64,000 nt of DNA from a bacterium (GTDB lineage: Bacteria; RBG-13-61-14; DATKZS01). Location: contig CAXXFL010000003.1 in NCBI GenBank assembly GCA_963674965.2, forward strand, positions 192,001 through 256,000. The letters are read 5' to 3'. The position numbers were made by a program, and so were the translations under genes. Below, in pieces: positions 530 to 21,149 of the stretch. The notes under the pieces were generated by a model. It saw only the letters and a list, made by a program, of their open reading frames with translations, did not search any database and was not told the origin of the DNA. Numbering within the stretch: position 1 is the first letter of the stretch; the number at the start of each line of letters is the position of its first letter.

Positions 530-727
530 ATATTCTCCCAAACCGCCCGGAACGCTCCGGGCTATCATCGATCGTTTCCGCCCGCCTGAAATAAGGTGGC
601 CCGGATAGCTTTGCTATCTGGGCGCCGACAGGCGGCGGAAAGTAAAGGCCGATGGATATCCGGCCATGGGTTCTTTACTTCCCAAGGTCTCGCGCCGCTC
701 GGACGGCCGAGTTATCCGGACACGCTG

Positions 728-782: not shown

Positions 783-902
783 TTATCCGAAGGCCGGGGC
801 CGCGGTCCCGCCGGTGCCTGGAATCGAGGTGGCGCTGGCGAAAGTAATGTTAACGAGCGGCTCGTTCTTCTTAACCGAAGGCTTGGTGTATTTCTTCTTC
901 AT
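783..902 (-). CDS. 39-aa putative RiPP precursor with a lasso/RRE-type leader (MKKKYTKPSVKKNEPLVNITFASATSIPGTGGTAAPAFG)
   Basis: Strong AAGGAG RBS before ATG 902; YxxP and L-x3-T leader pattern; lies between the lipoprotein stop (929) and a terminator; PqqD gene two genes upstream. An alternative in-frame ATG lies at 926. Confidence 0.8.
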   Translation of the reverse strand: MKKKYTKPSVKKNEPLVNITFASATSIPGTGGTAAPAFG

Positions 903-928
903 GGATTTCTCCTTTCTGGCTTCCATCG

Positions 929-2779
929 TTACTGAACGCATACGTGCGACGGCCACTGCTGGTAACCGCCCTGGTTCGCGGCGGTGCCCACGTTCCTGGG
1001 GGTGGCCATACCGCTATGCTGGATGTTGTAGTTGGAAAGCTCGCCCTGGGCGCCTCTGAGGATGTAATCCATCTCGGGCACCGCCGGGTCGTTGCATCCC
1101 TGGTTGGCGTCGTTCAGGTAAGCGGCGCCGCCGAAGGGATAGCAGGGGTCGTTCCAGCCGTCACCCGCGAAGCCCTTGGCGTAGAAGGTGGCCGCGTCGG
1201 TGAAGCTCTTGGTCCAGGACTGCTTGATCGAGGTGTAGCCGGAGAAGGTGTCCAGGAAGAAACTGGCTCCCAGTCCGCTTTTCCCGGCCTGGACCTTGAA
1301 GAAGTAAAGGCACATGATCAGATCGAAATCGGCGTCCGCGCCCTGCTGGTTGATGTTGACGTTGTAATAGGTGTAAGTGGCGCTGGTGGTCATCCAGCGC
1401 TCCTCAGGCCAGTAAACGCTGACCACGCCGCTCTTGGGCACGATGAAGTTCGCGATGCCGTAGTCGCCGGCCCAGGCGGGCATGTAGCCGGCGCTCAACA
1501 TGCGCATCTCGCCGCCGTACAAGGTGTAGTAACGGCCGGCGGAACTTCCGGCGCTGATGAAGCCGTTAAAGGTCTCGAACTCGCCAGTGGCGGCGTACAT
1601 GGCCAGCCAGCCGGCACTGGTGTCGCCTGGCGTGTTGAGCGCGTTGGGCAGCTCGAACTGGGTGTAGGACGGATAGTGCTTGTTGCACATGGTGGCGTTT
1701 TCGCAGGGCATGACGGCCCTGGTGGAAGCGCCGCGCACTATGGTTCCGCCCTGGGAGTTGCCCTGAGAGGTGACCACGTTCAGCACGAAGGGATTGTACC
1801 TTAAAACGTAGGCGATCTGGTTGTAGTAGAAATATCCGGACTGCTGCCTGTAGTAGTTGCCCACTTCCTGGGCCTCGAGCCTGTCGGGATACTCGACGCC
1901 GACGGCCATGGCGAAGTACTGGCCCGGGCTGACCACGTTGGCCACGGACGCGCCGTAGCCGGACATGACGTTCGAGCGGCGAGGGTTACCAATGGCGTAA
2001 ATCCCTCTATTGGGGGCGCTGGACAGGTTGTCCGCCAGGTCGGTGGCCATCAGGTAGAAGGTGGTCCTGTCATAGAAGTCGTAGCGGGAGTCGGTGGTCG
2101 GGTCGTCCCAGGGGAAGTAGTCCGCCGTGACGGTGGCGCGGAACTCGTAGTTGCCGGCCTGGTTTCCGAAGTCCCAGATCGTGCTCCTGGAGCCGCACTC
2201 GGGATGGATGGCCTGGAAGGGCTTTTTCATGGTTACGACCGTCGATCCGGCGCAACCCATCTCGTTGAAGGGCTCGTAGCCCAGCGAGTAGTAGATGCCG
2301 TCCTCAACGTAGCAGTAGCCGCCGCCGTTGATGGACTGCTGGCAACCGGTGTCGCCCGCGCCCGGAAGGTGGCAGGTGGTACCGTCAAGGGCGATGAAGT
2401 CGGCGTTGTCGAACCTGGCGCTGACGCAGGTCTGGCAGGCCGAGGTGAACACGAAGGCGTTGGCCATGTACTCGTCGGAGTCCAGGTTGACGAGCCTGAC
2501 CCAGCCGGTCGACTCGGCGCCCACTCCGCTGGTCGGGGTGTCGCCCATCTCGAGCGCGACCGTATGGCCGCCGATAACCGCCGTGGCGGCGCCGGAGCCG
2601 TTTCCGATGATGATCTGTCCGTCCTGATAGGATATCGGGATGGACTCGAAGTTAGCCTGGTCGCCCGGGGTTACCGAATCCTCGGAACTCGAGGGCCCCA
2701 TGCATCCGGCAAACAAGAGCCCGGCGCATACCAGCGCGAGACCCATTAATTTGCCCGTCTTGAAAAACCTTTTCATCAT
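929..2779 (-). CDS. Large Cys/Tyr/Gly-rich lipoprotein of unknown function
   Basis: 616-aa ORF with lipobox LFAGC, AAGGAG RBS and host-like codon usage. Confidence 0.85.
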   Translation of the reverse strand: MMKRFFKTGKLMGLALVCAGLLFAGCMGPSSSEDSVTPGDQANFESIPISYQDGQIIIGNGSGAATAVIGGHTVALEMGDTPTSGVGAESTGWVRLVNLDSDEYMANAFVFTSACQTCVSARFDNADFIALDGTTCHLPGAGDTGCQQSINGGGYCYVEDGIYYSLGYEPFNEMGCAGSTVVTMKKPFQAIHPECGSRSTIWDFGNQAGNYEFRATVTADYFPWDDPTTDSRYDFYDRTTFYLMATDLADNLSSAPNRGIYAIGNPRRSNVMSGYGASVANVVSPGQYFAMAVGVEYPDRLEAQEVGNYYRQQSGYFYYNQIAYVLRYNPFVLNVVTSQGNSQGGTIVRGASTRAVMPCENATMCNKHYPSYTQFELPNALNTPGDTSAGWLAMYAATGEFETFNGFISAGSSAGRYYTLYGGEMRMLSAGYMPAWAGDYGIANFIVPKSGVVSVYWPEERWMTTSATYTYYNVNINQQGADADFDLIMCLYFFKVQAGKSGLGASFFLDTFSGYTSIKQSWTKSFTDAATFYAKGFAGDGWNDPCYPFGGAAYLNDANQGCNDPAVPEMDYILRGAQGELSNYNIQHSGMATPRNVGTAANQGGYQQWPSHVCVQ

Positions 2780-2916: not shown

Positions 2917-3186
2917 CTATTTTATAAGACCTTGTTCCCTTAAATCCGAAATAAACTCCTTAATGTCCCCCGCCGCCCGATTGGGCTCGACCTCGAAGGC
3001 CTCGCATAAAGATTTTACCATATCTTCCTCTTCGGCGCCGCCTTCTTTTTCGATCAGCTTCCACAGGAAACAGCCCGTCTCGTTCAGACTGAAATAAAAT
3101 TTGGTCTCGAGATGCAAAAGGACCGCGCTTCCGTCATCCAAATCCGTAAATACCACGTCTTCCCTTGCGCTATACTTCTTTCCCAA
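2917..3186 (-). CDS. PqqD family protein / RiPP recognition element (RRE)
   Basis: 89 aa with VLLHLETKFYFSLNETGCFLWKLI...LCEAFEV...DIKEFISDLREQGLI, the typical PqqD pattern. Confidence 0.9.
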   Translation of the reverse strand: MGKKYSAREDVVFTDLDDGSAVLLHLETKFYFSLNETGCFLWKLIEKEGGAEEEDMVKSLCEAFEVEPNRAAGDIKEFISDLREQGLIK

Positions 3187-19426: not shown

Positions 19427-19583
19427 AGATAAATAGCACGGATAAAGGCTTAATTGAAACGGTTAGGATATTCTAGTAACATCCTTTCCAGGTTCATTGG
19501 CGCGCGGGCTCGACGGCCTTACGACCGGGCCCCTCGGACGGCTTGGGCGCGGCGCGTATATAACCGGGCCAAGAGGTTTTTTT

Positions 19584-21149
19584 ATGGCGAAAAGCGAAGG
19601 CAAATCCAGGACGTTAACTTTTTTGATCATCATCATTCTTTGCGTCTGGGCGGCGGTGGTGGGCGGCTACCTGGCCAATCAGAGGCGGGAAACCTCCGCT
19701 TCCCCCGCGGTCAAGCCCAAGTCCCCCCAAAAGCCGGGCATCGGCCAACGGGACGTCAAGTGGGACAAGGAGAGGTGGACGGGCATATATCAGGGCAACC
19801 AGAAGATAGGCTACGCCGTCTCGAGGGTCGCGGCCTTCGGTACCGGCTACAGGCTTTGGAACGTAAGCAGGATAAGGCTCGAGCTCCTTAACCAGACGCA
19901 GGATATCTCTTTGGACGTCCAGGCCAAGGTGGACGATCGATACTCGATCGACGAGGTAGAGTTCGAGGCCAAGTCCGGCTACATGGAGTTTCGCGCCCGC
20001 GGCGTAAGAGTCGGCAAGGACCTGGACCTGACCATTAACACGGGGGGAAAAGAGATCAACCATCGTCTCCACTTCGACGAGCCGCCCAAAATGGGTGAGG
20101 ACTGGATCATGCGCGAGAGCCTGGCGGACGCCGCGCCGGGGGACTCGATCCAGTTCAGCTTCTTCGAGCCCATGAGCCAGAAGAGCCTTCCCATGCGGGT
20201 GAAGGCGGTCGCGGAGGAGGAAGTCGAGATCGAGTCGAAAAAATACGACTGCCTCAAGCTGGAGATCACCATGGCGGGCCAGTCGCAGTGGGCCTGGATT
20301 TCCCGGGACGGCGAACTGGTTAAGGAATACCATCCCGGCACGGGCTTCACCACCTTGATGGAGGACAGGGACAAGGCGCTCGACGTGGACTGGGAGGCGG
20401 CCGGGCACGTGGACATTATCAGCCGGCTCATGGTCCCCTCCAGCTCGGTGATAAACAAGCCCCGCTCGGTCGGCCTGTTAAAGGTCGAGCTCCAGGAGGC
20501 CCCCCTCGAGGGACTCGAGCTATCGTTCCCGCCGAGACAGACCGTCGCGGGAAGAAAAGTCACCGTGACCATGGAGAGGGCCATACCCGCCATTGGATAC
20601 GCCCTGCCCATTGCCGAGTCCCTGCCCGACAAGGCGGAAAAGATGAAGAAGTGGCTCGAGCCCACGCCCTTTATTCAAAGCGGCGACGAGAAAATCATCG
20701 AGGCCGCCAGGGCCGCCGCGGGCCAAAGCCAGGACGCGGTGACGGCCGTGGACCAGATCATCCTCTGGATGGACCGGGAGATAGAGCCTTCCCTGGTGAC
20801 CAGCATCCCCTCGGCCCTCGAGGTCCTGGAACGGAAAAAGGGCGCCTGTAAGGAGCACTCAATATTATTCGTGGCCATGGCCCGCTCCCTCGGGATTCCC
20901 GCCAGGATGGCCGCCGGGATCGTTTACTCGGACGAGCAGATAATCGACGGGTTCTACTATCACGCCTGGGCCGAGGTATACCTGGCCGACGCCGACGGGC
21001 ACGGACAATGGGTGGCGGTGGACCCGACCTTCCACCAGAACCCGGCCGACGCCACGCACCTTCGGCTCATACTGGGGGACATGGAGGACATGATTTCCCT
21101 TATGAACGTGGTGGGCGTGCTCAAGGTGAAAGTGGAGGACTACAAATGA
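19584..21149 (+). CDS. Membrane-anchored transglutaminase-like protein
   Basis: Catalytic triad motifs GACKEHS, HAWAEV and VDPT. Confidence 0.88.
   Translation: MAKSEGKSRTLTFLIIIILCVWAAVVGGYLANQRRETSASPAVKPKSPQKPGIGQRDVKWDKERWTGIYQGNQKIGYAVSRVAAFGTGYRLWNVSRIRLELLNQTQDISLDVQAKVDDRYSIDEVEFEAKSGYMEFRARGVRVGKDLDLTINTGGKEINHRLHFDEPPKMGEDWIMRESLADAAPGDSIQFSFFEPMSQKSLPMRVKAVAEEEVEIESKKYDCLKLEITMAGQSQWAWISRDGELVKEYHPGTGFTTLMEDRDKALDVDWEAAGHVDIISRLMVPSSSVINKPRSVGLLKVELQEAPLEGLELSFPPRQTVAGRKVTVTMERAIPAIGYALPIAESLPDKAEKMKKWLEPTPFIQSGDEKIIEAARAAAGQSQDAVTAVDQIILWMDREIEPSLVTSIPSALEVLERKKGACKEHSILFVAMARSLGIPARMAAGIVYSDEQIIDGFYYHAWAEVYLADADGHGQWVAVDPTFHQNPADATHLRLILGDMEDMISLMNVVGVLKVKVEDYK

Follow-up and report, generated by a model that had tools for sequence, protein, structure and literature searches.

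A candidate RRE-dependent peptide system with a lasso-type leader and no lasso cyclase, conserved across a bacterial phylum

The window analyzed here, a 64,000-nt stretch of bacterial DNA, was found to carry a 39-aa open reading frame that is almost certainly a genuine RiPP precursor. Judged from sequence comparisons, the system to which it belongs appears to operate in the manner of the front half of a phosphorylated-lasso pathway, to represent a new RRE-dependent RiPP variant, and to be inherited vertically in single copy across an uncultured phylum. Whereas most RiPP clusters are accessory and patchily distributed, this cyclase-free system behaves as a core function, its vertical, single-copy character being kept after break-up into four loci and its precursor being tied to what is probably a major surface protein. 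The new elements contributed by the window are the single-copy distribution throughout the phylum, the scattered but presumably cognate enzymes, the +2 site and a cohesin-fold partner. Hereafter, G000 denotes the genome of the window, C1, C2, C6 and C7 denote other contigs of G000, and L numbers denote loci. The phylum of the window comprised 13 genomes in five families, whose kinship makes them fewer than 13 tests.

The precursor gene and its conservation

In the window, the peptide gene is the last gene of an operon with the order RRE, lipoA and peptide, the features of which are as follows.

2917–3186, minus strand: stand-alone RRE of the PqqD family, lasso B1-like, 89 aa (PF05402, 69.6 bits; closest solved structure TbiB1, E 5e-13)
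929–2779, minus strand: LipoA, a 616-aa lipoprotein with lipobox Cys26, an N-terminal beta domain and a cohesin-fold domain at about residues 233–616
909–915, minus strand: Shine-Dalgarno sequence of the peptide gene, 6 nt from the ATG (a strong RBS precedes the orthologues too)
783–902, minus strand: precursor peptide gene, 39 aa, supported by the conserved leader register and orthologues
840–902, minus strand: leader, lasso-type, 21 aa
786–839, minus strand: core, 18 aa, Ser/Thr/Gly/Ala/Pro
834–836, minus strand: core Ser2 codon, where phosphorylation is predicted (28 of 28 phylum peptides have Ser/Thr here; putative by the Ser3 precedent of BsfK, PMC10368454)
727–761, minus strand: intrinsic terminator and operon end, a 12-pair hairpin (9 G-C) with a T run

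Translation of window positions 783–902 on the minus strand gave MKKKYTKPSVKKNEPLVNITFASATSIPGTGGTAAPAFG, the product that the earlier note had claimed for a minus-strand frame with a strong RBS; the claim was borne out by the Shine-Dalgarno sequence, the terminator and the orthologues described below. Alternative in-frame starts exist upstream of the ATG (GTG 956 and ATG 926), and the start at 902 was favored because of the RBS position and the starts of the orthologues. A comparable hairpin and T run lies 3' of most peptide orthologues, and the cysteine synthase gene beyond the terminator is not kept beside the peptide in relatives. The stretch between cysK and the terminator at window 595–642 was matched by several high-depth DNA-run contigs with unrelated flanks, and thus represents a repeated intergenic element.

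The leader carries Tyr, Pro, Val, Leu and Thr at positions −17, −14, −12, −6 and −2, respectively, in exact agreement with the lasso leader register (YxxPxL spanning −17 to −12, with Thr at −2) given in PMC10368454, and the lasso-type character ascribed to it beforehand thus held. Among 7,386 small ATG ORFs of G000 with an RBS-like 4-mer, the lasso spacing YxxPx[LVI]x5[LVIM]x3T was unique to the peptide ORF, and the strict family leader pattern occurred once in the 6.5-Mb genome. Meanwhile, Pfam and NCBIfam models gave no match to the 39-aa peptide, a structure search with it returned nothing useful, and a degenerate DNA pattern for the leader performed no better than its control.

The search for leader paralogues and relatives proposed in the earlier note was carried out; no paralogous precursor was found in G000, and orthologues were found in 11 of the 13 phylum genomes, in all 11 directly 3' of the large lipoprotein gene. 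The RRE orthologue was present in 13 of 13 genomes (47–67% identity), with the large lipoprotein gene next in each. In the other two genomes, G009 and G012, the peptide was absent from two profile searches, and the contig of each stops inside lipoA; a 15-codon match in G012 (E 0.085) was rejected as a precursor owing to its lack of a leader. A metagenome scan added 24 loci, three of which (L138, L147 and L149) end before the stop codon and were excluded, and the conservation set comprised 28 distinct complete orthologous peptides.

The family leader consensus of these 28 peptides was YxKPx[VIL]K[KR]NxP[LM]xN[IV]T[FY], its invariance being due in part to the search patterns; in an alignment of ten peptides, Tyr, Pro and Thr of the leader never varied (10 of 10). 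Across the 28 peptides, the 17 codons of the leader displayed 0.22, 0.12 and 0.54 differences per site at codon positions 1, 2 and 3, respectively, and the invariant Tyr, Lys, Pro, Asn and Thr were each encoded by several synonymous codons. Over 378 non-independent pairs, the leader showed 2,619 synonymous versus 1,577 non-synonymous codon differences, the latter count being low by construction since the peptides were gathered by leader patterns (the core was not selected on). By these codon statistics, the leader appears to be under purifying selection.

The 27 short cores were 13–26 aa long and 85% Gly/Ala/Thr/Pro/Ser, with Ala at position 1 in 25, a PG[TS] motif in 18, and a variable C-terminal residue. 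None of the 27 contained Lys, Arg, His, Cys or Trp, and an aromatic residue was found in only three. The precursor of G011 (L070:10355-10672, minus strand; 105 aa) has a 75-aa core with extra Gly/Thr stretches and acidic residues, in which Thr at +2 is kept and PG[TS] is at the end.

Remote enzymes and related systems outside the phylum

An intact operon in the order RRE, lipoA, peptide, kinase, radical SAM enzyme (rSAM), lipoB and B2 was found in G007 (L065) and G011 (L070), the latter with NTP_transf_5 in addition. The same intact operon occurs in the metagenome loci L141 and L142, the full operon was also found at L155 (record 'Deltaproteobacteria bacterium RBG_13_61_14'), and the kinase directly follows the peptide in L132, L139 and L150 as well. 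In G000, the best matches to the G007/G011 operon enzymes were spread over three other contigs.

G000:C2:701028-702071: HPr-kinase-like kinase, 44% to G007
G000:C2:702068-703096: radical SAM enzyme, directly after the kinase, 49% to G007
G000:C6:1064002-1064511: B2 Cys-His protease (NF033537, 54.4 bits versus a cut-off of 33); a lipoB match also lies on C6
G000:C1:621629-622855: NTP_transf_5 protein, a weak match (28%) to the G011 copy

Of the 13 phylum genomes, the kinase was found in 13, rSAM in 12, B2 in 13 (12 over cut-off) and NTP_transf_5 in 11, the last not being found in the remaining two, with about one orthologue of each per genome. The kinase lies immediately 5' of rSAM in 12 of 12 genomes, and NTP_transf_5 adjoins B2 in only two of the 13 (G011 and G012). 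The His, Lys-Thr/Ser and Asp-Asp of the kinase were intact in 7 of 7 aligned sequences with the same spacing as in BsfK, the Cys and His of B2 were intact in 12 of 12, and rSAM possesses CxxxCxxC and five further invariant Cys residues. In the B2 tree, from which the G009 row was disregarded owing to a wrong reading frame, the C6 B2 clustered with the operon-linked B2s of its own family (support 100/99); the RRE and B2 trees broadly tracked the families, with most branches weakly supported. The remote kinase, rSAM, B2 and NTP_transf_5 are very probably the cognate enzymes of the peptide. 'Orphan' kinase-rSAM-B2 operons can hence have distant precursors, overlooked by cluster-based mining, and the 18-aa core with its predicted Ser2 site offers a defined, testable substrate for the rSAM subfamily, HPr-kinase-like kinases and NTP_transf_5 proteins.

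Outside the phylum, the rSAM subfamily was detected in 10 of 388 genomes sampled, the kinase sharing the rSAM locus in eight of the ten and adjoining the RRE in the remaining two. From nine of these ten genomes, precursors with the leader register of the phylum were obtained (11 sequences), and none was found in G141. Asp, Glu and Cys occurred in none of the 11 outside cores, which often end in Phe; nine carry Ser/Thr at +2, and the rule is broken in the precursors of G359 and G088. Five outside genomes have the precursor immediately 5' of a large lipoprotein gene and at a distance from the enzymes, and the gene order in G312 is precursor, rSAM and lipoprotein. Comparison of the outside lipoproteins with LipoA gave local E-values of 2.5e-11 to 3e-3, which in such tiny databases denote weak homology; those of G022 and G058 had no genome-level match to LipoA, and no significance was reached when N-domain profiles of LipoA, lipoB and the outside lipoproteins were compared (hhalign probability < 4%). 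Among 2,753 long frames and proteins, no precursor-lipoprotein fusion was found. The only fusion was that of G088 (L216:6817-7266, plus strand), in which a single ORF encodes an RRE together with a leader of its own and a Ser/Thr/Ala/Gly core, and which sits between a TolB-like protein and the kinase.

The rSAM subfamily is unnamed (534 matches at E 1e-30 or better), and the enzyme may not act on the peptide, because sugar/nucleotide enzymes (BlsE, viperin-like) are found near the top of its solved relatives. YydG is also among its solved relatives, although weakly (E 8e-9), and this relation, together with an uncharged small-residue core of variable length, could be accommodated by a reading in which rSAM is a poly-epimerase or backbone modifier that yields a D-amino-acid peptide in a proteusin/YydG-like fashion, with the kinase and nucleotidyltransferase being ancillary. 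We consider this very unlikely, since the kinase-rSAM coupling (adjacent in every phylum genome with rSAM, and in the same locus in most rSAM-bearing outside genomes) points to a shared step and the leader is lasso-type rather than NHLP or Nif11. The idea of backbone modification raised in the earlier note is itself supported, as backbone or side-chain radical chemistry, by the conserved radical SAM enzyme.

No lasso cyclase was found in any operon examined. Both full-length PF00733 proteins of G000 scored 231–235 bits versus the lasso-cyclase cut-off of 525 and passed the AsnB model; the PF00733 protein nearest B2 in G009 was also AsnB-type, and the three tested proteins spanned 231–239 bits. 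The only other PqqD protein of G000 belongs to a self-contained C7 cluster that includes a precursor of its own. The presence of this second RRE along with a kinase, a nucleotidyltransferase and a B2 on C7 could be taken to mean that the 39-aa peptide derives by degeneration from a lasso precursor or serves that separate RiPP cluster as an additional substrate. This explanation is extremely improbable and largely refuted by the apparent purifying selection on the leader, the lack of a ring acceptor, the AsnB-type scores of the asparagine-synthetase-like proteins, the position of the C7 RRE and B2 as far outliers in the trees, and the precursor that C7 already possesses.

The C7 cluster (G000:C7:733205-741331; L007) is itself cyclase-free and comprises a 28-aa precursor, an RRE, NTP_transf_5, kinases, a B12 radical SAM enzyme, B2 and two more radical SAM enzymes. 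Two further loci without rSAM were noted in records titled HR37 and Candidatus Dadabacteria, with gene names assigned by eye and from trees: L165:4289-9400 (plus strand) contains a related RRE, a kinase-like ORF, B2, a nucleotidyltransferase-like ORF and an ABC transporter, and L168:393-4347 (plus strand) a related RRE, a kinase-like ORF, B2 and an ABC transporter. In addition, a 550-aa ORF at window 19497–21149 (plus strand) gave a weak transglutaminase-like (PF13471) match, but the NCBIfam model does not class it as a lasso B2.

Comparison with known peptide systems

The system shares with lasso biosynthesis the YxxPxL register with Thr at −2, an RRE (B1) and a B2 cysteine protease, and lacks a lasso cyclase. 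As the earlier note had observed, the 18-aa core contains no Asp, Glu or Cys. Its view that the peptide is unlikely to be a canonical lasso, sacti-, ranthi- or lanthipeptide was upheld by the wider family: Asp/Glu at core positions 7–9 occurs in none of the 27 short cores, nor in the 75-aa core, and the peptide is therefore no lasso peptide; core Cys occurs in 0 of 28 phylum and 0 of 11 outside peptides. Nor does the core contain the conserved Trp, Tyr, Phe or His of rSAM aromatic cross-linked RiPPs (cyclophane, streptide).

SynChlorMet (TIGR04248-04251) and HPr-rel-A (TIGR04352-04353) systems combine a PqqD-family chaperone with an HPr-kinase-like protein, SynChlorMet also with radical SAM enzymes. 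ScmF was the best NCBIfam match of rSAM; however, all scores fell far below the cut-offs (ScmD, 35.5 versus 100; ScmF and ScmE, 101.6 and 82 versus 400; TIGR04352 kinase, 32.2 versus 200; TIGR04353 PqqD, 22.2 versus 35), and the phylum system differs in having one rSAM rather than two, along with a B2 protease, lipoproteins and a precursor that is defined. Daptides likewise are RRE-dependent linear peptides with no macrocycle. According to bioRxiv 2023.03.08.531785, they need an invariant C-terminal Thr, a site-2 protease, a dehydrogenase, an aminotransferase and a methyltransferase, none of which was seen in the phylum loci.

Phosphorylated lasso clusters (bsf of Bradymonas, paeninodin and pseudomycoidin), as described in PMC10368454 and PMC9266682, resemble the phylum system in the leader register, the split RRE (B1)/B2, an NTP_transf_5-type protein, and an HPr-kinase-like kinase with the same catalytic motif, the site of BsfK being beside the cut (PMC10368454). 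In contrast, the phylum system has no cyclase, Asp/Glu acceptor or ABC exporter, contains a radical SAM enzyme and two lipoproteins, and is single-copy phylum-wide and often dispersed.

The fosfazinomycin system (FzmZ/T/F/K/U; PMC13622209) resembles the phylum system in its short YxxP peptide, discrete RRE, kinases, nucleotidyltransferase and absence of a lasso; these proteins ligate a phosphonate to the peptide, FzmU being the enzyme that ligates the activated cargo. It differs in targeting a C-terminal Arg via an asparagine-synthetase-like enzyme and in having neither B2 nor lipoproteins. On this precedent, the peptide could be a disposable intracellular scaffold, on the first core residues of which the kinase, nucleotidyltransferase and rSAM would build an activated phospho-sugar or cofactor cargo, to be released by B2 and general peptidases and used by the lipoproteins. 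Such a reading, which we regard as unlikely, would account for the absence of a linked exporter and for a core that is fixed only at +1 and +2 and otherwise variable, with lengths between 13 and 75 aa. The recurrence of PG[TS] and the tight composition devoid of Lys, Arg, His, Cys and Trp, however, exceed what a throw-away tail would need, and the Fzm enzymes, according to the same source, act at the C-terminus and need the asparagine-synthetase-like enzyme, which is absent from the phylum loci.

Our literature search found no description of a cyclase-free peptide system of this kind in a coverage that largely excluded subscription journals and supplements (e.g., RRE-mining tables), which may list such loci.

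Proposed pathway and surface partners

The best reading of the whole, which we hold to be about evenly poised between right and wrong and whose chemistry and target we infer, is an RRE-guided phosphorylation of Ser2 followed by tailoring and leader removal, giving a linear peptide for the cell surface. In the first step, the presumably co-transcribed RRE would bind the YxKP...L leader, as suggested by the motif match and co-conservation, and would recruit the HPr-kinase-like kinase for phosphorylation of core Ser2 and perhaps also of the Thr of PG[TS]. The rSAM enzyme would then act on, or next to, the phosphorylated residue, and the NTP_transf_5 protein would extend the phosphate with an NMP or a sugar. 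Finally, the B2 Cys-His protease would cut after residue −1 to give a free linear 18-mer. This product, encoded at the 3' end of the presumed lipoA transcript, may be displayed on, bound by or linked to LipoA or to the TolB-like lipoprotein accompanying B2, and would most likely carry or tag a glycan through a phospho-linkage.

Lasso biochemistry is the basis on which RRE binding of the leader and B2 cleavage are proposed. Phosphorylation at Ser2 is, by analogy, rather likely, because BsfK, in which the catalytic motif and its spacing are the same, modifies Ser3 or Thr3 next to the cleavage site with a boost from the RRE (PMC10368454), and the possibility of Ser/Thr phosphorylation voiced in the earlier note accordingly gains support from the conserved HPr-kinase-like kinase and from core position 2, which is always Ser or Thr. 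That kinase and rSAM are so constantly paired suggests that the radical step takes place on or near the phosphorylated residue. Extension of the phosphate is the most likely function of NTP_transf_5, since PsmN adds hexoses to phospho-Ser (PMC9266682) and FzmU ligates cargo; the role of NTP_transf_5 in lasso clusters is still described as unresolved in PMC10368454 and PMC9266682. The conserved NTP_transf_5 protein also lends weight to the proposed glycosylation, in the form of glycosyl or nucleotidyl decoration.

LipoA gave no match to Pfam or NCBIfam models, and its family comprises 122 representatives at 50% identity. A 93-row AlphaFold model (pLDDT 86.8) matched cohesin with Z 11.8, rmsd 2.6 and 140 aligned residues at about 11% identity (Foldseek E 4.9e-5), with adhesin/pilin Ig folds close behind (Z about 10); an earlier 16-row model (pLDDT 57.9) had no match at E 0.001, and an atlas search gave just a 0.76 lead. 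LipoA thus resembles cohesin-bearing surface scaffoldins in its cohesin-like beta-sandwich, but differs in its large insertions, lipoprotein anchor, low identity and lack of a Pfam cohesin match. Dockerin-like domains occur, mostly in very large proteins, in 9 of the 13 phylum genomes (G000:C2:160796-160957 among them), and these proteins are possible partners of LipoA. We know of no cohesin protein that is tied to a RiPP. In addition, the predicted complex of LipoA residues 45–616 with the unmodified precursor had a score of 0.00, a result that speaks neither for nor against binding.

The codon bias of lipoA ranked at the 96.6th percentile (CAI) and the 98.6th percentile (highly-expressed-type) among 3,354 ORFs, relative to a crude reference set that includes two shadow ORFs, and LipoA is probably an abundant surface protein. 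The identity among its orthologues is only 22–44%, a divergence that fits exposure at the surface. A close strain is represented in a wastewater metatranscriptome by one contig that spans 847–2818 and joins lipoA to the first 56 nt of the peptide gene, which is a weak sign of co-transcription, as a contig over two genes does not prove one transcript. Contigs covered neither the RRE gene nor the 3' half of the peptide gene nor the flanks, which is uninformative, and RNA run X2 contained only short pieces of relatives.

A TolB-like propeller lipoprotein accompanies B2 in most phylum genomes and outside the phylum, and lipoB of G007 is TolB-like. Genes related to glycan metabolism were family-specific rather than universal: in family f1, all five genomes have a sulfotransferase and a galactokinase 3' of B2, and a GDP-mannose dehydratase and a second GDP-sugar enzyme follow the peptide in the three family-f3 genomes having it. 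NTP_transf_5 frequently adjoins NusG-like or DegT genes. A multi-pass membrane protein of 507–531 aa, which has no Pfam match and looks GT-C glycosyltransferase-like by eye, is convergent on B2 in 4 of 4 family-f3 genomes (L105:9213-10736, L106:4081-5646, L107:9674-11236 and L108:2077-3672).

The core-gene behavior, the tie to a surface lipoprotein and the glycan neighbors point to an envelope role of the product, which we put forward tentatively, as slightly less than an even proposition; against it stand the family-specific character of the glycan genes and the absence, from the phylum loci examined, of any linked exporter by which a cytoplasmic product could reach the surface lipoproteins. 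Most known RiPPs are secreted signals or antagonistic peptides, and the present peptide could act in the same way, with the TolB-like lipoprotein conferring immunity or serving as receptor, and the location after lipoA supplying only a strong promoter. The company that the TolB-like propeller keeps with B2 and the variation of the core between species would fit such a role. Nevertheless, we judge it distinctly unlikely: the system is single-copy phylum-wide, its trees follow taxonomy and it survives the split into four loci, unlike patchy antibiotic clusters; no conserved transporter or regulator was seen at the phylum loci; and the core is uncharged, and free of aromatics in 24 of 27 cases. 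A single copy beside a probable major surface protein across the phylum suggests instead a routine job at the cell surface rather than an antibiotic. In the more specific and rather doubtful form of the envelope proposal, the lasso-type machinery would turn the Ser/Thr peptide into a phospho-linked, rSAM-activated handle on a cohesin-fold, S-layer-like LipoA, carrying or priming a glycan; if true, surface proteins would be modified by a new route, common to several uncultured phyla, in which the linker is a ribosomal peptide.

Relatives of LipoA were also observed. An 866-aa fibronectin-III-bearing paralogue with a shared C-terminal CVQ ending is encoded at G000:C2:408466-411066 (L173:4466-7066), and such paralogues recur in family f1, with no adjoining precursor. 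At G000:C2:336511-338416, two near-identical lipoprotein starts lie about 1.4 kb apart and are weakly similar to the LipoA N-domain.
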